Positions 41,839 through 51,329 of a DNA stretch of 64,000 nt are shown in pieces. The DNA comes from an uncultured Bacteroidales bacterium. Lineage in GTDB: Bacteria; Bacteroidota; Bacteroidia; Bacteroidales; VadinHA17. Each line of letters opens with the position of its first letter. Position 1 is the first letter of the stretch. The stretch is from contig CAVSYN010000034.1 in the NCBI GenBank assembly GCA_963732115.1, positions 362,354 to 426,353 of the forward strand, read 5' to 3'. The notes beneath the pieces are model-generated. The model was not told where the DNA came from. It searched no databases and saw only the letters and a list, made by a program, of their open reading frames with translations. The position numbers were made by a program, and so were the translations under genes.

Positions 41839-42306
41839 ATGAAAAAATCCAAATCATTATTCTTTACCTTATTATTCTTAGTATCTGCGTTTTACGTTTA
41901 TGGGCAAAATCAGTCCGAATATGAGAAAAAGCTCCGTCAACAGGAGTCAAACAAGAAAATGGTAACCGAATTTTATCAGGAGCTCTTCGGAAACAAAAAT
42001 CCAGATGCCATCAATAAGTACATCGGTGATAAATACATACAGCATAACCCCGGCTTACCTGATGGTAAAGAGGCTCTGCTTCAGGCAGTAAAAGTCTGGT
42101 TCAAGGATGCACCCAAAGAAAAAGTGGATTTTCAGCATGTGGCAGCTGACGGGGACCTTGTATGGTTGCATGTCAGAAGCAAGTCCGGTCCAAAAGTAAG
42201 GGCAATAGTGGATATTTTCAGGATCGAGAACGGCAAAATTGTGGAACATTGGGATGTTATCCAGGAAATTCCGGAGAAGTCAGCCAATGATCATCCTATG
42301 TTTTAA
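41839..42306 (+). CDS. SnoaL-like / NTF2-fold protein with signal peptide
   Basis: 155-aa ORF. ..NKKMVTEFYQELFGNKNPDAINKYIGDKYIQHNPGLPDGKEAL.. and ..IFRIENGKIVEHWDV fit the SnoaL-like (COG4922-type) pattern. Confidence 0.65.
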   Translation: MKKSKSLFFTLLFLVSAFYVYGQNQSEYEKKLRQQESNKKMVTEFYQELFGNKNPDAINKYIGDKYIQHNPGLPDGKEALLQAVKVWFKDAPKEKVDFQHVAADGDLVWLHVRSKSGPKVRAIVDIFRIENGKIVEHWDVIQEIPEKSANDHPMF

Positions 42307-44214
42307 CATTCATGATTTTCTTAATTGCTTCAATATTCATCGGATTCACAATACTTTTTCCTTCAGGAGTATACAAAAAGTCGATTGTAGTCTTGTGCCG
42401 TTCAACAACTTTTGCTCTAACCAGTTTCCCGAGACTATTTAAAAGTTTGTTATCACCACTGAATGGTTCATCGATTATTGCGATGGCGGAAGGTAACCAC
42501 CTTGAAGGGAAAAGATCGCCATATACACCTCCCGGCTTATACTGATTTATTACTGATTCCAGTTCATTTAAAATTGCTTCCAGTCCTTCTATTTCGGTCA
42601 GACTGATATTATTGTTTTTTAGCCCATTTTGCCAATGCATCTCCGTTTGGTACAAGCAATGCGGAAGTATACTTATTCTGGTTATTATACAGCATCATCT
42701 GTTCAATAAACTGAGATCTGTCGGTTATAGTTTCTTCTATTCCTTCAGGACTGTATTTTTCTCCATCGTCTGAAATAAGCAGGCTCTTAAATCTTCCCAG
42801 AACATAAAGGAATCGGTCTTCATCAACATATCCCATATCCCCGGTATGGAGCCATCCTTCTCTAATTGTCTCCAGAGTAGCTTTTTCGTTTTTCCAGTAT
42901 CCTTTCATAACATTTTCTCCGCGGATTACTATTTCACCCTTTTCCCCGACAGGCATCTCATTTCCTTCCTCATCACATATTTTCAGGTCAAGGTTTTTAA
43001 CTATGTTTCCGGATGATCCCAGCTTATGCCTTTTTAGAACATTTGATGAAATTACCGGTGAAGCCTCAGTTAAACCATACCCCTGCAGCATAGGGATCCC
43101 TATTGCATAAAAAAACTTCTGAAGTTCAATATCAAGTAAGGCTGCTCCCCCGATGAAAAACTCCATTCTTCCGCCAAAGCTGGCTCTGATCTTTTTAAAA
43201 AGGATTATCGTCATATAGTTTGTATAATGGTTTAAGAAATATCTTCATTCCTTTCCCTTTATCCCATCCAATACCATTATAACTATAAGCAATCTTTAAT
43301 GCATGTTTGAAAAGCTTTTCTATAAACGGACCCTTTTCTCTTATTCCTTTTTCAATCCCTTTTCGAAAGCTTTTTGCCAGGGCTGGTGCAGTAAAGAGGA
43401 ATACGGGCTTAACCTCCCTTATATTTTCCGCGAGATGCTTGAGACTGTCAAGATAGGATTTGCCCGATTGAACAGCGGCCAGGCTGGCTCCCGTATTCAT
43501 CATGATATATATTCCCACTGTATGTGCAAAGGAATGGTCCCAAGGCAAGATTAGAAGCGTTGTCCACCATTCAAGAACATCCATAAGAGTAAGTGCCTGT
43601 TCAATATTGGCAGTATAGTTCCCATGAGACAGGATTATTCCCTTGGGATCTGCTGTAGTTCCTGAAGTGTAACAAATATTTGCATAATCATCGGGGCCGA
43701 CTGATTTTATTGTATCCATGAATTTATCATGGTTTGTATTCAGATATTCCTCCCCCAATTTCCTGACATCTCCAATAAATATTTCATCCCGGGAATAACT
43801 CTCCTTTGGGTCCAGAAGAATAACCTTTTCAAGATTCTTAAGATCATGTTTAATAGAATTAATCTTATCAATCTGAAGGGATGAGACTATCACCCATCTT
43901 GACTCTGAATGGTCTAGTCTGAATTTCAGATCAACACCCTCTTTAAGGGTGATGGTAAGAGGTACACTTATTGCACCAGTATGCAAAATTCCAAGCTCAC
44001 TTATTACCCACTCTGCCCGGGCTTCAGATAGTAACGCAATCCGGTCACCCTTTTTTATGCCAAGCGCCAATAGGCCTGCTGCTACCTTGTAAGCTTGCTC
44101 TTTGGTCTCTTTGTAAGTGATCGCTACGTATCTGTCAGTCTTTTTCTCAAGAAGATATGGATTGTTAGCATACTTCTGCGTGCTGATTTCCAATAAATCG
44201 ATTATTGTCTTCAT
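42296..44214 (-). pseudogene. long-chain fatty-acid--CoA ligase (AMP-binding family), two frameshifts
   Basis: Three colinear ORFs are involved. 43195-44214 carries YTSGTTADPKGIILSHGNY (the AMP-binding P-loop). 42609-43214 carries ..GYGLTEASPV.., ..GWLHTGDMGYVDEDRFLYVLGRFK... 42296-42655 is the C-terminal subdomain. Confidence 0.8.
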
Positions 44215-44627: not shown

Positions 44628-45500
44628 TTGATGTCCAAAGGAGTTCATCTCATTTATATAGGGATTTTTGTTGCAGTAACTTCGATTGTTCTTATCGGGC
44701 TCACTTATAGGGGCATATCTTACTACAGGGTGAGCATTGAGGAGAGATTTTATCATCCCGATCACAATAGATTTAAACCAAGCGGTTACATAGGCCACAG
44801 CCTGGGTATTACCGGATCATTGCTTATTCTTATCGGGGTGGGATCCTATATGGCCAGGAAAAGATACCGCTCCTTGTCCCGCTTCGGACTTCTGAAATAC
44901 TGGCTTGAGTTCCATATTTTTATGTGTATCCTGGGGACCATCCTGATTGTTTTTCATACAGCTTTTAAAATTGGAGGCCTGGCGGCGGTCAGCTTTTGGA
45001 GCATGGCAACTGTCTTTATCAGCGGTTTCGCAGGACGGGTTATTTATCTTCAGATCCCCAGAACTATGGAAGGCCGTGAACTTGATCTGAAAGAGGTAAG
45101 GGACATGAGAGCTGATGTTGTAGAAAAAATAAAGGGTTCTTATGATTTTGACAAACAGAGCTTTAAATTCATAACATTAGCAATTGAAAACAGATCAGGT
45201 CTTTACACCGGAAGCAGATTTACGGGTTTTCTGAAGAACTATTTCAGTGACAGGGCCTCTGTTACTGATGTAAGCAACTATCTGAAAGAAAATAAAATAT
45301 CAGGATCCGAATTTTCGCGGATCGTAGCCCTCGTAAAAGATGATCTCAGGCTCGGAAGGACGATCGAACGGCTTGAAATGATGAAAAACCTGTTCAGGTA
45401 CTGGCATGTTTTTCATCTTCCTTTTGCCATACTGATGCTTATCTTTATGATCTTTCATGTTATTGTTACTGTGGCTCTTGGTTACCGATGGATTTTTTAA
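44628..45500 (+). CDS. 5-TM membrane protein with two His-x13-His helices (candidate di-haem b-type electron carrier)
   Basis: 290-aa ORF with ATG at 44631. TM3 is ..WLEFHIFMCILGTILIVFHTAF.. and TM5 is ..WHVFHLPFAILMLIFMIFHVIV... Each has two His separated by exactly 13 residues. A ~110-aa soluble loop lies between TM4 and TM5. No family name was recognised. Confidence 0.6.
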   Translation: MMSKGVHLIYIGIFVAVTSIVLIGLTYRGISYYRVSIEERFYHPDHNRFKPSGYIGHSLGITGSLLILIGVGSYMARKRYRSLSRFGLLKYWLEFHIFMCILGTILIVFHTAFKIGGLAAVSFWSMATVFISGFAGRVIYLQIPRTMEGRELDLKEVRDMRADVVEKIKGSYDFDKQSFKFITLAIENRSGLYTGSRFTGFLKNYFSDRASVTDVSNYLKENKISGSEFSRIVALVKDDLRLGRTIERLEMMKNLFRYWHVFHLPFAILMLIFMIFHVIVTVALGYRWIF

Positions 45501-46834
45501 ATATGAACCAGACCATAATCAATATTTTGTTCTATTCCTTTACAGCAATTTTGTTCATTGCTGTAATCGCATTGTATCTGCGCAGAAAAGAAAGGCAATC
45601 CAGAATTACAGATGAAAAAATAAAAAAAGCCATTGAAGAAGGGCTTCATGAACCTATTTCCCTTCATCCATATGTCGATGTGAACAGATGCATGGGCACA
45701 GGCGCATGCGTTAAAGCCTGTCCTGAGAAGGATATACTCGGAATGAAGCATGGAAAAGCGATGGTGATAAACGCTTCGAGGTGTATTGGTCATGGAGCCT
45801 GTTTCCATGCATGCCCGACTGAAGCTATTACCTTACGGATCGGCACTGAGAAACGGGGTGTGGATCTGCCTCATGTGAGTAGAACATTTGAAACAAATGT
45901 TCCCGGGATATACATTGCAGGTGAGCTTGGAGGAATGGGTCTTATCAGAAACGCTGTTGAACAGGGAAAGCAGGCAGCTGAGAATATTATCAATTCAATT
46001 AAAAAGGATCACAAGGCTGATTATGATCTTGTTATCGTTGGGGCCGGCCCGGCGGGTATTTCGGCATCACTGGCAGCAAAAAAACACGGTATCAGGTTCC
46101 TGCTGCTTGAGCAGGATACTCTTGGCGGGACCGTTTTCACATATCCCCGGACAAAGGTGATAATGACTGCTCCGATGGATCTGCCGCTTATGGGCAAAGT
46201 AAAGCTTAGTGAGACAAGTAAACCGGTATTGCTTAATCTGTGGCAGACTGTACTTTCGAAATATGATATTGCTATTCGTGAAAACTGCAAAGTTGAATCA
46301 ATTGAACGCTCAGATAGTAACTTTGATGTAATTACGGCTGACGGTCAGCACTTCAATACGGCTTTTATTCTCCTGTCAACAGGAAGACGCGGGAGTCCGA
46401 GAAAGCTTAATGTGCCCGGGGAAGAGAAAGAAAAAGTTGCTTACAGACTCCTGGAACCGGAGGAGATCACAGGAAAAAATATTCTGATTGTGGGAGGCGG
46501 TGACTCAGCAATTGAATCTGCGCTGCTCCTTGCTGAGCAGAACCATGTCACAATTTCATACAGGAACGAAGTATTTAACAGGATTAAGCCCCTTAACAGC
46601 GTTGCCCTTAATAAAGCTCTTGCAGCAGGTAAGCTGGAAGTCAGGTTTAATACCAGCCTTGATAAAATAGAAGATGATTGCATAACCCTTTCAACTGCAA
46701 CTGAAGGACATAATTTGAGATTAAGCAATGACCTGGTATTTATTTTTGCAGGAGGGGAACTGCCGACTCAATTCCTTGAAAAAACCGGTATAAAAATTAC
46801 AAGGAAATTCGGGGAGACAATATTAAAGCACTAA
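45488..46834 (+). CDS. membrane-anchored ferredoxin-domain + FAD/NAD(P)-binding (TrxR/FNR-like) oxidoreductase
   Basis: 448-aa ORF whose start overlaps the upstream stop. It has an N-terminal TM segment (IINILFYSFTAILFIAVIALYL) and two Fe-S motifs, CMGTGACVKACP and CIGHGACFHACP. VIVGAGPAGISASLAAKKHG and ILIVGGGDSAIESALLLAE are Rossmann motifs. No CxxC redox disulfide was seen. Confidence 0.85.
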   Translation: MDFLNMNQTIINILFYSFTAILFIAVIALYLRRKERQSRITDEKIKKAIEEGLHEPISLHPYVDVNRCMGTGACVKACPEKDILGMKHGKAMVINASRCIGHGACFHACPTEAITLRIGTEKRGVDLPHVSRTFETNVPGIYIAGELGGMGLIRNAVEQGKQAAENIINSIKKDHKADYDLVIVGAGPAGISASLAAKKHGIRFLLLEQDTLGGTVFTYPRTKVIMTAPMDLPLMGKVKLSETSKPVLLNLWQTVLSKYDIAIRENCKVESIERSDSNFDVITADGQHFNTAFILLSTGRRGSPRKLNVPGEEKEKVAYRLLEPEEITGKNILIVGGGDSAIESALLLAEQNHVTISYRNEVFNRIKPLNSVALNKALAAGKLEVRFNTSLDKIEDDCITLSTATEGHNLRLSNDLVFIFAGGELPTQFLEKTGIKITRKFGETILKH

Positions 46835-46868: not shown

Positions 46869-48494
46869 TTGATAGAATTGGAGCTTTTACAGGTTATGAC
46901 TAAAGGTAATATAAAACTGATCGGAATTGTTCTTGGCATCATTCTGATGTGCAGGGGTGGGTATGCCCAGATCTCGCCCGGTGATCTGTCGAAGGACCAT
47001 GAATTTCTTGAAGGGATATCGAACTGCACCAGATGTCATATTCTTGGAAATAAGATAACCGGCGAAAAATGCCTTGACTGCCATACCGAAATAAGGGAAA
47101 GGATTTCAGCTGGAAAGGGATATCATTCCTCTTCAGTAGTACAAGCGAAACAATGTATTGAGTGCCATAGTGATCATCATGGGAAAAACTTCCAGCTGGT
47201 AAGGATGAATCATTCAGAGTTTGATCATAAACTCACGGGCTTCGCCCTGTCAACTCCGCATTCCAGGCTGCAATGCCTGGATTGCCATAACGCAAAGTTC
47301 ATCACGGGTCAGAAAATAGCCGGGAAAAAATTCACCTACATGGGGGTGAAACCAGAATGCCTTACATGTCATGCCGATTATCATCTCAACACTCTTTCAG
47401 CTTCATGCCTTAATTGTCATGGGTCAGAAACCTTTAAGACGGTTCCTGCTTTCAGCCATGAAGATGCCCGTTTTAAGCTGGCAGGCAAACATAAGAACGT
47501 TGAGTGTGTCAAATGTCACAATTTTGAAACCATAAACGGGAATAAATTCCAGGAATTCCGCGGAGTGGCTTATGCTTCATGCACCGACTGTCATAAGGAT
47601 CCTCATCAGAACAAGTTCGGCCAGAACTGTCGCCAATGCCATAGCGAAGTCTCATTCACGACCATAAAGGGAATATCGAATTTTGATCATAATAAAACAA
47701 ACTTTCCTCTTGTTGATAAACATCTTGCCGTCGATTGCAAGTCATGCCACAAAATGAATCTTACAGATCCGCTTAAACATGATCGATGCACTGATTGTCA
47801 TTCAGATTACCATAAAGGCCAGTTTGCGAGAAACGGGATCCTCACTGATTGTTCCGAATGCCACAGTGTGAAAGGCTTTACAACTTTTTCCTACACTCTT
47901 GAGCAGCATAACCTTAGCTCCTTCCCGCTGAGGGGAGCACACTCAGCACAACCATGTTCAGAATGTCACAAAAAACAGGCAATGTGGTCATTTAAAGGGA
48001 TCGGAAAAGAGTGCATTGATTGTCACGATGATATCCATAAAACCTTTATCAGCACAAAGTACTATCCTGACGGGAATTGCAGGACCTGCCATACTGAATC
48101 AGCCTGGAGCGATGTCTCTTTTGATCATTCAAAAACCAGCTTCTCCCTGACAGGGGAGCATGCCAATCAGCGTTGTACCATCTGCCATATTACGCGAACA
48201 GCAGGTGCAGTTATTACGCAGCGTTTCGCGGATCTCCCGACAGATTGTTCTGCCTGTCACAGCGATAACCATCAGGGCCAGTTTAAAAACAACGCTGGAG
48301 AAAACTGCACCGATTGTCATGTAACGGAAAACTGGAAACCCTCAAGGTTCGACCATAACAAGACCGCCTTCAGGCTTGACGGGGAACATGTGAAAGTTTC
48401 CTGCACCGGGTGCCACAAACCTCAGCAAAACGGATCTGTCACCTACACACTCTATAAAATAAAAGACTACCAATGCGAATCCTGTCACTTTTAA
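46869..48494 (+). CDS. secreted multihaem cytochrome c, 20 CXXCH motifs
   Basis: 541-aa ORF, probable ATG 46896 (MTKGNIKLIGIVLGIILMCRGGYAQ signal peptide). I counted 20 CXXCH motifs, from CTRCH to the C-terminal CESCHF. It has repeated F(D/S)H..T.F.L.G.H....C..CH units of the doubled-CXXCH type. Confidence 0.9.
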   Translation: MIELELLQVMTKGNIKLIGIVLGIILMCRGGYAQISPGDLSKDHEFLEGISNCTRCHILGNKITGEKCLDCHTEIRERISAGKGYHSSSVVQAKQCIECHSDHHGKNFQLVRMNHSEFDHKLTGFALSTPHSRLQCLDCHNAKFITGQKIAGKKFTYMGVKPECLTCHADYHLNTLSASCLNCHGSETFKTVPAFSHEDARFKLAGKHKNVECVKCHNFETINGNKFQEFRGVAYASCTDCHKDPHQNKFGQNCRQCHSEVSFTTIKGISNFDHNKTNFPLVDKHLAVDCKSCHKMNLTDPLKHDRCTDCHSDYHKGQFARNGILTDCSECHSVKGFTTFSYTLEQHNLSSFPLRGAHSAQPCSECHKKQAMWSFKGIGKECIDCHDDIHKTFISTKYYPDGNCRTCHTESAWSDVSFDHSKTSFSLTGEHANQRCTICHITRTAGAVITQRFADLPTDCSACHSDNHQGQFKNNAGENCTDCHVTENWKPSRFDHNKTAFRLDGEHVKVSCTGCHKPQQNGSVTYTLYKIKDYQCESCHF

Positions 48495-49684
48495 TATTAT
48501 CCATGCTTTTGATTGCAGCATATCAGAGGGTCCAGTCGCCTCACGGACCCGATTTTAAGGTAAGCTGTAAAACCTGCCATAGCACAAAGGGATGGCAGCT
48601 TGATAAGGAAATATATTCATTCGATCATAACAGGACAAAACTCCCGCTTTCGGGACAGCACACAAGCCTGAACTGCAAGGAGTGTCATCCTACTCTTGTG
48701 TTTTCACAGGCAAAATCAAGCTGCAGCGATTGCCATCATGATGTTCATCAAACAACTGTAGGGAATGACTGCGCCCGATGCCATACTCCGGTTTCATGGC
48801 TTGTCAGTAATATTACGGAAATTCATCAGATGAGCAGGTTCCCGCTGCTGGGGCCACACAGGACGGCCGATTGTGTCCAGTGCCATAGATCAGAGAATCC
48901 GGTCCGGTTTGATGTTCTTGGGATTAATTGTATTGATTGTCATAGAAGTAACTTTCTGGCAACCACAAATCCAAATCATGCCCAGGCCGGATTTTCGCAG
49001 GATTGTTCTTCATGCCATCTGGTTAATTCGTTTCAATGGGCCGGAGCAGGATTTGATCATTCGTTTTTCCCACTTGTGCTGGGACATTCTGTACCAAAAT
49101 GCGCTGATTGTCATACTACCGGAAATTACAGGGATGCAAAAACCGATTGCTATTCGTGTCATCAGCAGAATTATCTGGGGACCACAAACCCCGATCACAA
49201 CGCTTCAAAATTCTCAACAAACTGTCTGGATTGCCATTCTCTTAACCCTGGCTGGAAACCTGCAACTTTCGATCACAGTGCTTTTCCGCTTACACTCGGA
49301 CATGCGTCAGTAGCCTGCACTTCATGCCACCTAAATGGCAATTATTCCACAACCTCTCCTGAGTGTGCTTCCTGTCACCTGACTGACTATACAAATACTG
49401 CTAATCCGGGTCATGTATCTCTCAATTTCTCACATACCTGCACCGATTGCCATACTACTACCCCCGGGTGGAAACCAGCTGCATACAAGCAGCATGATTC
49501 ACAATTCTTTCCGATATATTCCGGTTCGCACAACGGCAAGTGGAAAAATTGTACGGATTGCCATACGAATTCAGCCAGCTACGCTCAGTTCAACTGTATT
49601 ATCTGCCATGCTAATGCTCACAGGGGCAGTAATTATACAAATGCACAATGTTATCAATGCCATCCTACAGGAAGGGGTGATTAA
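48473..49684 (+). CDS. secreted multihaem cytochrome c, 16 CXXCH motifs
   Basis: 403-aa ORF whose ATG overlaps the upstream stop by 22 nt. It has the signal peptide MRILSLLILSMLLIAAYQ and 16 CXXCH motifs by my count. Units of the FDH..FPL.LGH....C..CH type alternate with TNP.H......C..CH units. Confidence 0.9.
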   Translation: MRILSLLILSMLLIAAYQRVQSPHGPDFKVSCKTCHSTKGWQLDKEIYSFDHNRTKLPLSGQHTSLNCKECHPTLVFSQAKSSCSDCHHDVHQTTVGNDCARCHTPVSWLVSNITEIHQMSRFPLLGPHRTADCVQCHRSENPVRFDVLGINCIDCHRSNFLATTNPNHAQAGFSQDCSSCHLVNSFQWAGAGFDHSFFPLVLGHSVPKCADCHTTGNYRDAKTDCYSCHQQNYLGTTNPDHNASKFSTNCLDCHSLNPGWKPATFDHSAFPLTLGHASVACTSCHLNGNYSTTSPECASCHLTDYTNTANPGHVSLNFSHTCTDCHTTTPGWKPAAYKQHDSQFFPIYSGSHNGKWKNCTDCHTNSASYAQFNCIICHANAHRGSNYTNAQCYQCHPTGRGD

Positions 49685-49692
49685 AACATAAT

Positions 49693-51329
49693 ATGAAAAA
49701 TCTGGTATTTATAATCTGCTTTATTCTGTCCTTTAGCAAACCTCTCCAGGGACAGCCTGCTTCCCGGAATATTACCGGTCAGGTTTCTTTCATTTCTTCA
49801 CAGAATATTTATGTAAGGTTCGGGAACACGTCAGGAATAAGTGTTCATGATACACTTTATATTTCATCAGGCGATAAACTGGTACCAGTCCTGGTTGTAA
49901 ACAGCCTTTCTACCACCTCCTGCCTTTGCACAGCCATTTCAGGAGAAGATCTCCCTGTCGGTCATGTAATTATCGCGAAAAAAAATCCTTTAATTGCAGC
50001 GAAGGAAGAGAAGACCCTCGAAGATGTTAAAAAGGAAACTCCTGTCCCTGTCCAGGAAAATAAACCTGTTTCCGGAACAACTAGCTTAATAACTTCAGGC
50101 TCAAAGAATGCGAGTGTCCCATCTAAACAGCGAATAAGCGGGAGCATATCAGCTGCTTCATATTCAGATTTTTCTAATACAACCGGCGCTGATGTCCAGC
50201 GATTTCGTTATACCCTGTCAGTCGATGCCAAAGATATAGCTGACTCGCACTTTTCGGCTGAGACATACATTTCATTCAGGCATAAATCAGGCAACTGGAG
50301 CGAAGTCAGGAGTGATATTTTCAATGCGCTGAAAATATACAGTCTGGCAGTTAAGTATGATATTGACAGCACGACTCATTTAAGCCTTGGCCGCCAGATT
50401 AACCCGAGAATTTCGAGTATCGGATCCTTTGACGGACTCCAGGTTGAAAAGTCAATAAAAAGGTTTACGGCAGGCCTGATTGGCGGTTCCCGACCGGATT
50501 ACCTGAATTTCGGATTTGACCCAAAACTTCTGCAGTTTGGAGGATACCTGTCATATGATATCGTTAACGACCGGGTATATTCAGGGACATCTCTGGCTTT
50601 CATGGAACAGCTTAATTCAGGAAAAACCGACAGAAGATTCCTCTATATTCAGCATTCAGGTTCGCCTGTCAAGAATCTTAATGTATTCAGCTCGTTTGAA
50701 ATTGATCTTTTCAAAATAAAAAATAATAAACCCGCCTCCGAATTCGACCTCACTTCTCTTTACATGTCAATGAATTACAGGTTGTTTAACGGATTCACTA
50801 TTGGAGGCTCCTATGATGCCAGAAAGAATCCGGTATATTATGAAACTTTTAAATCACTTATTGATTCATTGGTGGAAAACGGATTTCGGCAGAGTTACCG
50901 GTTACACACCAATATACGTATAGCAAATTCATTTGTTCTTGGCTTGCAATCGTCCTGGCGCTTTCAGAAAACAGACCTTCATCAGTCAAAAAACCTCTCT
51001 GGATATTTCAGCTACAACCATCCGGTAAGAACTATTTCTCAGCAACGCTTTCAGGAAATTATATCGAAACTGCTTATTTAAAAGGGATGACAGCGGGGAT
51101 TACGATCCTGAACAGCCTGGTGTCAGGGAAGATTCAGACAAGTGTTGGTTACAGTTATCAGGATTACAAGCTTTCCGAAAGCAGTCAGAAAATTATTCAG
51201 CATACCGGCAAAGCTGACCTGTACTGCCAGGTAGCAAAGAAGACATTTCTTTCTGTTAATTACGAAATCACCTTTGAGCCAAACAGGACATATAACCGCC
51301 TTTACCTTCAGGCTATTAAACGCTTCTAA
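49693..51329 (+). pseudogene. outer-membrane beta-barrel-like protein (porin candidate of the cytochrome cluster), one apparent frameshift
   Basis: ORF 49693-51081 has the signal peptide MKNLVFIICFILSFSKPLQGQ, a small N-terminal domain, a low-complexity linker and then alternating-hydrophobicity segments. ORF 51087-51329 ends ..YNRLYLQAIKRF. A 1-nt shift at ~51015-51026 joins them: ..YFSYN..GKNYFSATLSGNYIETAYLKGMTAGITILN... The joined product would be ~545 aa with a terminal Phe. Confidence 0.6.

Follow-up and report, generated by a model that had tools for sequence, protein, structure and literature searches.

A five-transmembrane protein with two conserved His pairs, a putative di-haem cytochrome b encoded beside a flavoprotein and multihaem cytochromes in Bacteroidota

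A 64,000-nucleotide (nt) stretch of contig CAVSYN010000034.1 from an uncultured Bacteroidales bacterium, which we call the window (contig positions 362,354 to 426,353; coordinates below count from its first letter), carries a run of genes encoding, in order, a small protein with five transmembrane (TM) helices, a membrane-anchored flavoprotein with iron-sulfur (Fe-S) motifs and sites for flavin adenine dinucleotide (FAD) and NAD(P)H, two multihaem cytochromes c (MHCs) and a putative outer-membrane protein (Table 1). An earlier reading of the window, made from its letters alone (the sequence-only reading), had singled out the first of these proteins for two helices with paired His residues, and proposed that it binds two b haems and passes electrons across the membrane. 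Here we report the architecture of this five-TM protein, the conservation of its His pairs across a large family, its remote kinship to known cytochromes b and the gene neighbourhoods in which its homologues occur. These analyses point to a putative di-haem cytochrome b, which may form the inner-membrane step of an electron-export chain.

Table 1. Features of the window discussed here, with their positions and the basis of each assignment.
Feature	Position	Strand	Basis
Five-TM putative di-haem cytochrome b, 289 amino acids (aa), DUF4405-like / ferric reductase domain (FRD)-like clan member	44631-45500	+	Open reading frame (ORF), homology-based start, AlphaFold2 (AF2), sub-threshold Pfam matches
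TM1	44649-44711	+	
TM2	44787-44855	+	
TM3	44892-44966	+	
TM3 His pair: H95 (44913-44915) and H109 (44955-44957), preceded by W91-x3	44913-44957	+	Codons checked
TM4	44976-45050	+	
All-helical insert of about 115 aa between TM4 and TM5, inferred cytoplasmic, 21 Lys and Arg	45051-45395	+	AF2, charge counts
TM5	45396-45479	+	
TM5 His pair: H262 (45414-45416) and H276 (45456-45458), preceded by W258-H259	45414-45458	+	Codons checked
Partner flavoprotein, 448 aa: N-terminal TM anchor, ferredoxin-like domain, FAD and NAD(P)H domain	45488-46834	+	Pfam, NCBIfam, PDB, motifs
Ferredoxin-like motif 1 of partner	45689-45724	+	
Ferredoxin-like motif 2 of partner	45782-45817	+	
Multihaem cytochrome c, 20 CXXCH, c7-type repeats, signal peptide	46869-48494	+	CXXCH count, Pfam Cytochrome_C7
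Second multihaem cytochrome c, 16 CXXCH, signal peptide	48473-49684	+	CXXCH count, Pfam, synteny
Putative outer-membrane protein, about 535-545 aa when intact, signal peptide, C-terminal ...YLQAIKRF	49693-51329	+	tblastn, translation, synteny
AMP-dependent acyl-CoA ligase-like gene, apparently split	42296-44214	-	

Architecture and conserved histidines of the five-TM protein

The ORF proposed at 44628-45500 is present on the + strand, with a correction to its first codon: the TTG at 44628 gives way to the ATG one codon on, at 44631, because the homologues, also of 289 aa, all begin MSK or MTK. Residues are numbered from this Met. The AF2 model, computed on a 96-sequence alignment (mean predicted local distance difference test score (pLDDT) 91.4, predicted template-modelling score 0.83), superseded a poor earlier model from 20 sequences (pLDDT 68). 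It contains helices at residues 3-32, 53-78, 88-109 and 116-140, soluble helices at 153-169, 175-193 and 199-220 and a long helix at 225-282, the last third of which is TM5. The model thus fits a protein of five TM helices, a number also given by hydropathy, with an all-helical insert of roughly 115 aa between TM4 and TM5. The five-TM protein contains neither a CXXCH motif nor an output or signalling domain.

The distribution of Lys and Arg suggests how the protein is oriented. Segments on one side of the membrane carry one such residue at the N-terminus, five within the 12 residues of loop 2 (RKRYRSLSRFGL) and 21 in the insert; those on the other side carry four in loop 1, one in loop 3 and one at the C-terminus. 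By the positive-inside rule, this bias places the N-terminus, loop 2 and the insert in the cytoplasm, so that TM3 and TM5 would lie parallel, both running from inside to outside. H95 and H262 would then form the cytoplasm-proximal pair and H109 and H276 the periplasm-proximal pair, the arrangement described for the ferric reductase domain (PMC3591440).

The insert is kept in length (111-129 aa among homologues) and poorly kept in sequence, with a mean column conservation of 0.32 versus 0.51-0.67 for TM2-TM5. It has no Pfam or PDB sequence match, and profile searches of PDB sequences with a closer alignment (A1) and a curated 96-sequence alignment (A2) returned only coiled-coil noise on it.

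TM3 reads EF-H95-IFMCILGTILIVF-H109-TAF and TM5 reads VF-H262-LPFAILMLIFMIF-H276-VIV, with exactly 13 residues between the two His of each helix, as first noted. Their conservation in homologues had been put forward as a test of the haem proposal, and the test leaves the proposal standing: among 105 full-length representatives of 50%-identity clusters, which share 26-51% identity with the window protein, the four His are kept at 93-100% (H95 99%, H109 100%, H262 93%, H276 95%). In A2, whose mean column identity is 32%, H109, H262, H276 and W258 are invariant and H95 is present in 95 of 96 sequences. Judged from these alignments, the four His stand out as the best-kept positions in a large family. 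H259, next to the invariant Trp, is conserved at 88% among the 105 representatives. The two helices share a common W-x3-H-x13-H register, in which each cytoplasm-side His follows a conserved Trp by one turn (W91-x3-H95 and W258-x3-H262), and this shared register points, indirectly, to an equal membrane depth of H95 and H262.

In 100,000 shuffles of the protein's own composition, at least two His pairs at spacing 14 arose with p = 0.02, and at least three, the number observed, with p = 0.0009. Chance probably accounts for the third pair, H42/H56, which is not conserved. The additional His that the sequence-only reading had pointed out in TM2 (IGHSLG) is present as H56; it does not hold as a family feature, being 65% conserved with Leu or Gln in other members, and we rejected it as a fifth ligand.

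A basic triplet, R76-K77-R78 (44856-44864), is 90-96% conserved at the cytoplasmic end of TM2, ahead of TM3. In MsrQ, Arg77 and Arg78 at the cytosolic face are functionally important and hold flavin mononucleotide; the likeness of the triplet to these residues may be coincidental.

Remote kinship to haem b families

Searches with the five-TM protein recovered 2729 matches in a 90%-identity cluster database and, by exhaustive HMMER search, 3221 50%-identity clusters at E ≤ 1e-3, of which 346 reached E ≤ 1e-30; at least 578 loci occur in a collection with one genome per species. The protein had been described as unannotatable, which holds in that nothing scores above a family threshold; it does not hold below threshold, where TM5 matches DUF4405 (PF14358; 22.8 bits against a cut-off of 26.7, E 1.4e-4) and Ni_hydr_CYTB (18.2 bits against 30.1, E 2e-3) in Pfam, and where precomputed PF14358 flags mark the cluster of the window protein and four others, 5 of the 120 matches listed. 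Pfam gave no Ferric_reduct (PF01794) match for the window protein itself. When the 96 members of A2 were scanned one by one, weak matches recurred to DUF4405 (50/96), Ni_hydr_CYTB (24/96), Ferric_reduct (19/96) and PepSY_TM (2/96), and no further Pfam family recurred in more than two of the 96. The Ferric_reduct matches of native sequences cover profile positions 1-60 over TM2-TM3.

The insert proved to interrupt these alignments. We removed residues 147-247 in silico from ten diverse members and rescanned them against Pfam. With the insert deleted, the alignment of DUF4405 to TM4 plus TM5 spans the whole model (positions 4-64 of 66), and one member (P0034_del) passes the DUF4405 gathering score (26.9 versus 26.7 bits). 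Another (P0247) aligns to Ferric_reduct positions 1-120 of 121 over TM2-TM5 (E 4.9e-5, 23.8 bits against a cut-off of 28) and to Ni_hydr_CYTB positions 54-167 of 179 (E 2e-5). By these profile matches, the protein resembles the core of a two-haem cytochrome b into which an extra segment has been inserted; it stands at an equal distance from several named families and belongs fully to none of them. HHpred placed DUF4405 in the cytochrome b family (Makarova et al. 2015, PMC5898192), and haem b binding was shown for a purified DUF4405 protein, whose model has four His at its centre, as in MsrQ and PepSY proteins (Huang et al. 2024, PMC11334425).

The likenesses and differences with respect to each of these families can be stated in some detail. 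DUF4405 proteins, FezC and the MsrQ-like and PepSY-like cytochromes are, like the window protein, small and polytopic, with four central His as their most conserved residues (PMC11334425, PMC5898192). The window protein differs from the DUF4405 group in having five TM helices rather than six, in bearing its His pairs on TM3 and TM5, and in the insert, which splits the DUF4405 unit and leaves native scores below the gathering score. The partners differ as well: an anchored NAD(P)H Fe-S flavoprotein and MHCs here, ApbE-flavinylated proteins or ferrosome genes there.

With the FRD of NOX/FRE proteins and MsrQ, the family shares four His on TM3 and TM5, at spacings of 14 and 14 compared with 14 and 13 in NOX2, in which the haem His are 101/115 and 209/222 (PMC3591440). 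It also shares the inferred topology, in which the N-terminus is cytoplasmic and TM3 and TM5 lead outward, and an overall plan of NAD(P)H flavoprotein inside, haem or haems in the membrane and acceptor outside. The differences are five TM helices instead of six, a TM5 spacer of x13 instead of the x12 of NOX2, the large TM4-TM5 insert and a best Ferric_reduct score that stays below threshold. Whereas NOX carries a C-terminally fused FAD/NADPH domain resembling ferredoxin-NADP reductases (FNRs), the flavoprotein here is a separate polypeptide of the thioredoxin reductase (TrxR)/YpdA type with a ferredoxin-like domain; and whereas FRD proteins deliver electrons to O2, an Fe(III) chelate or MsrP, the acceptor here would be an MHC. 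MsrQ (YedZ) offers a precedent of separate encoding, as it uses a separately encoded reductase (Fre) together with a periplasmic partner (PMC12525009).

Ni_hydr_CYTB proteins, too, are di-haem b subunits through which a redox enzyme is wired across the membrane, and the helix of that model with which TM5 aligns is its C-terminal one, which bears two His. These proteins differ in being four-helix bundles with His spread over three or four helices and with a quinone site. Weighing these comparisons, we lean, by a modest measure, towards a distinct family within the DUF4405 / MsrQ-FRD / Ni_hydr_CYTB group, one whose members fall outside each named family by that family's own membership test.

Several database annotations were set aside. 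The JGI product name 'sulfur relay (sulfurtransferase) DsrC/TusE family protein', borne by P0032, P0034, P0044 and others, we treat as spurious, with no DsrC/TusE match in any Pfam scan; it looks like a propagated annotation error. An apparent fusion of 418 aa (P0210), half five-TM protein and half Pyr_redox_3, looks like a frameshift or chimera, and a second candidate fusion (P0166) carries only a weak DUF6572 N-terminal extension.

Redox partners and synteny

The partner gene overlaps the stop codon of the five-TM gene by 13 nt, and its product begins with a hydrophobic anchor directly followed by RRKERQSR; no Tat motif was found in it. The earlier description of the neighbouring FeS/FAD enzyme as membrane-anchored and translationally coupled to the five-TM gene is thereby upheld. 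Pfam assigns the partner to Pyr_redox_3 (1e-42) and Fer4 families, NCBIfam to a YpdA-like family, and its best PDB matches are NADPH-dependent YpdA/Bdr and TrxR-type FNRs. Its two-Rossmann, thioredoxin-reductase/YpdA-like domain bears an FAD motif (GAGPAG) and an NAD(P)H motif (GGGDSA); this flavoprotein domain contains no CxxC.

The ferredoxin-like domain carries two atypical motifs, CMGTGACVKACP and CIGHGACFHACP, both of which lack the canonical second Cys (CxxT/SxxCxxxCP in motif 1, CxGHxxCxxxCP in motif 2). The Thr/Ser of motif 1 and the His of motif 2 are kept in 77 of 77 Bacteroidota homologues; in a distant soil clade, described below, the motif 2 His is kept and motif 1 is canonical. 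Read from sequence, these substitutions would imply [3Fe-4S] or His/Ser-ligated clusters beside the membrane haem.

We fetched 80 loci, found with A1, from the species-representative collection. All are from Bacteroidota metagenome-assembled genomes (MAGs; Bacteroidales, Saprospiraceae, Lentimicrobiaceae, Rikenellaceae and others), and all carriers of the family that we found are uncultured MAGs or metagenome contigs. The FeS/FAD gene lies directly 3' of the five-TM gene, usually overlapping it, in 76 of 76 informative Bacteroidota loci, and every one of the 80 loci with enough downstream sequence has the order five-TM, FeS/FAD, MHC, MHC. A homologue of the outer-membrane protein then follows in 53 of them, and the same order, including this protein, occurs in loci L001 and L002.

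The soil clade, about 27% identical, has a different arrangement: an MHC with 31-43 CXXCH, a large outer-membrane protein with an AMIN domain, a protein of about 280 aa, the five-TM protein and the anchored FeS/FAD protein. Its contigs have a GC content of about 0.58, and the clade is probably Acidobacteriota. The AMIN domain is N-terminal in the large protein encoded between the MHC and the five-TM gene (E 3e-11; L095 6034-9186 and homologous positions in L091-L170); such domains also occur in secretins and amidases. Just 5' of the five-TM gene lies a gene for a conserved signal-peptide protein without a known family, of 273-287 aa in the soil clade and 251 aa in locus L171.

The MHCs that adjoin the five-TM gene share, in every lineage, a common N-terminal QISPGxLSxxH...NCxxCH directly after the signal peptide. 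An MHC is kept beside the five-TM gene in all lineages and is therefore its universal partner. The shared QISPGxLSxxH...NCxxCH end could contact the periplasmic face of the b cytochrome. In the window, Cytochrome_C7 matches the 20-CXXCH protein in nine stretches (E 2e-24), its likely start is the ATG at 46896, and the 16-CXXCH gene overlaps the 20-CXXCH gene by 22 nt.

The putative outer-membrane protein has no Pfam match and is probably a beta-barrel. The frame of its gene is broken at about 51021-51039: in tblastn, the 535-aa homologue of L001, which is intact, is matched by frame 1 as far as residue 433 and by frame 3 from residue 440 onwards. A homopolymer error in the long reads or a true pseudogene could account for this break. 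A close relative (L006), a MAG of the same sample series, has a similar break. Upstream of the five-TM gene, the acyl-CoA ligase-like gene on the - strand appears split into three consecutive, overlapping ORFs (43195-44214, 42609-43214 and 42296-42655), which suggests further assembly frameshifts and so supports the artefact reading of the break.

A proposed electron path and its alternatives

The proposal that a bis-His, two-haem TM cytochrome b of the FRD/NOX, MsrQ or cytochrome b561 kind serves as the membrane electron step beside the FeS/FAD enzyme draws support from three independent lines, conservation, remote homology and synteny: four His are conserved, the weak homology is to two-haem families of the kind proposed and redox partners are encoded for both sides of the membrane. 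In the arrangement that we infer, from haem binding and haem number through topology and partner contact to electron direction and quinone independence, the haem nearer the cytoplasm would be held by H95 and H262 and the haem nearer the periplasm by H109 and H276. The co-translated, anchored flavoprotein would reduce the cytoplasmic haem by way of NAD(P)H, FAD and two Fe-S clusters, and the periplasmic haem would pass electrons to the 20-haem cytochrome and on, through the 16-haem cytochrome and the outer-membrane protein, to an extracellular acceptor. Such an MsrQ/Fre-like or 'split NOX' module would take electrons over the inner membrane for a porin-cytochrome conduit, and might do so without recourse to the quinone pool. 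By a more speculative analogy, the partner's anchor, running from N-out to C-in, might take the place of FRD TM6. The central claim, a transmembrane di-haem b wire between a cytoplasmic NAD(P)H Fe-S flavoprotein and a periplasmic multihaem chain, is one that the sequence evidence makes somewhat the better bet.

Several results count against this path. No native sequence, neither the window protein nor any of the 96 members, scores above the curated threshold of any Pfam family. Foldseek of the full model against the PDB gave no match at E ≤ 0.001 (best E 0.47), with the long insert dominating whole-chain alignments; cytochrome b561 appeared at ranks 15 and 22 (E about 2, template-modelling score 0.22-0.29, not significant). 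Alignment of A2 by hhalign to the single Escherichia coli sequences of MsrQ and YodB was not significant either, and with MsrQ only the W..H..H motif of TM5 aligned, onto H151/H164 (E 0.14). In three lineages (L171, L173 and L174/L175) the five-TM gene adjoins MHCs of 20-30 haems but no FeS/FAD gene; the flavoprotein thus does not accompany the family everywhere, and some other donor, perhaps quinol, would act in these lineages. Finally, outward electron flow from NAD(P)H would dissipate the membrane potential, which would make the module an electron sink rather than an energy-conserving step.

The missing above-threshold family match and significant fold match would suit a protein that binds no haem at all, in which the His bind another metal or are structural and the protein is a sensor, assembly factor or scaffold that signals through its helical domain. 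The top, non-significant Foldseek matches are indeed helical sensor and BAR-type bundles, and two-component regulators lie nearby in several loci. We nevertheless regard such a protein as very improbable. His at i and i+14 on two parallel TM helices, kept almost absolutely, are the canonical bis-haem signature (PMC3591440), the recurrent weak Pfam matches all fall in haem-b families, the gene is translationally coupled to that of a redox enzyme, and the protein has no domain that could serve as an output.

The lineages that couple the five-TM gene to MHCs without an adjacent flavoprotein also favour a second alternative, in which the di-haem cytochrome b is a quinol dehydrogenase that oxidises menaquinol and feeds periplasmic MHCs, and the FeS/FAD protein is an accessory NAD(P)H:quinone or NAD(P)H:haem feeder. 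The five-TM protein would then be a functional analogue of CymA, ImcH, CbcL or CbcBA, or of FdnI/NarI in reverse. To our knowledge, all characterised Gram-negative inner-membrane entry points into extracellular electron transfer (EET) are quinol oxidases. The weak likeness to Ni_hydr_CYTB, whose members are quinone-reactive, agrees with this alternative too, as does the finding that MsrQ binds a quinone (PMC12525009). What counts against it is the gene order of the two large clades examined, where the gene for the NAD(P)H flavoprotein is always adjacent and mostly overlapping; this pairing argues for a direct protein-to-protein electron path. A cytoplasmic domain of about 115 aa and a cytoplasm-side haem would also be needless for a periplasm-facing quinol site, and no quinone-site motif was identified in the sequence, which is not able to test for such a site. 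On balance we hold a quinol dehydrogenase to be unlikely, while giving it more weight than the other alternatives. By the gene-order evidence, the flavoprotein is the best-supported donor in two large clades, one of them that of the window. The suggestion that the soluble loop, which is the insert described here, could dock the FeS/FAD enzyme is weakened because the insert (111-129 aa) persists in the lineages without an adjacent FeS/FAD gene, being retained in L171, L173 and L174/L175.

Nothing in the sequence fixes the direction of electron flow. The same wire might run inward: a donor in the periplasm or outside the cell, such as Fe(II), reduced humics, a cathode or a partner cell, would supply electrons that pass through the MHCs and the two haems to the flavoprotein and on to NAD(P)+ or another cytoplasmic acceptor. 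Porin-cytochrome conduits can be bidirectional (PMC8258643), and TrxR-type FNR and YpdA-like flavoproteins are reversible in principle. Against an inward path, the reduction of NAD(P)+ (about -320 mV) from typical extracellular donors would be uphill and would oppose the membrane potential, and the flavoprotein lacks the CxxC from which a disulfide substrate might be suspected. The hosts are MAGs of Bacteroidales, Saprospiraceae and Lentimicrobiaceae, groups whose relatives in culture live as organotrophs or by fermentation and require electron sinks. We consider inward flow improbable.

For the outward path, the closest parallels in genomic setting are CymA, ImcH, CbcL, CbcBA and MtrCAB/Pcc, in which an inner-membrane redox protein is encoded with MHCs and an outer-membrane protein, as the five-TM protein is with MHCs and a putative outer-membrane protein. 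CymA, ImcH, CbcL and CbcBA, however, are quinol oxidases with c-type haems, alone or together with a di-haem b domain, whereas the five-TM protein has no CXXCH; its pairing with an NAD(P)H flavoprotein suggests a route for which quinone may be unnecessary. Neither the MHCs of the family's loci, with 20, 16 and up to 43 haems, nor the outer-membrane protein has a close homologue that has been characterised. The di-haem assignment is well supported in silico, and the quinone-independent route from NAD(P)H to the outside is an attractive, unproven extension of it. The fullest version, a quinone-independent, two-polypeptide, NOX-like exporter with unusually ligated Fe-S clusters and two b haems feeding a 20-haem wire directly, we put forward tentatively, as a possibility that is more doubtful than the di-haem wire itself.

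Implications for electron export in uncultured Bacteroidota

Outside Shewanella and Geobacter, no part of EET is less well understood than its inner-membrane step. We found no description of the inner-membrane pair of five-TM protein and flavoprotein in the searchable open literature; the EET papers found for Bacteroidota, Acidobacteriota and Lentimicrobium treat only the outer conduits (porins and MHCs), and open-access full-text literature turned up no inner-membrane EET candidate for Bacteroidota. The five-TM family, which is large, uncharacterised and always found with giant MHCs, may supply the step at the inner membrane that has been lacking from accounts of how uncultured Bacteroidota export electrons.

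On a conservative reading, the family adds a distinct architecture to the haem-b wires, in which five helices span the membrane and a helical insert on the cytoplasmic side divides the DUF4405 unit, and the five-TM/flavoprotein system extends a known principle rather than revealing a new one. If the proposed path is true, it would be the first diderm inner-membrane entry point into EET that bypasses the quinone pool, and fermentative Bacteroidota, together with the probable Acidobacteriota soil clade, could dump reducing equivalents on minerals, humics or partner cells. Should electrons from NAD(P)H pass straight to MHCs in this way, models of the metabolism of abundant, uncultured fermenters from sediments, lakes, soils and digesters would have to be revised to include respiration-like sinks that lack coupling to quinone or to the proton-motive force, and the two genes would offer a compact module for engineering electron export.

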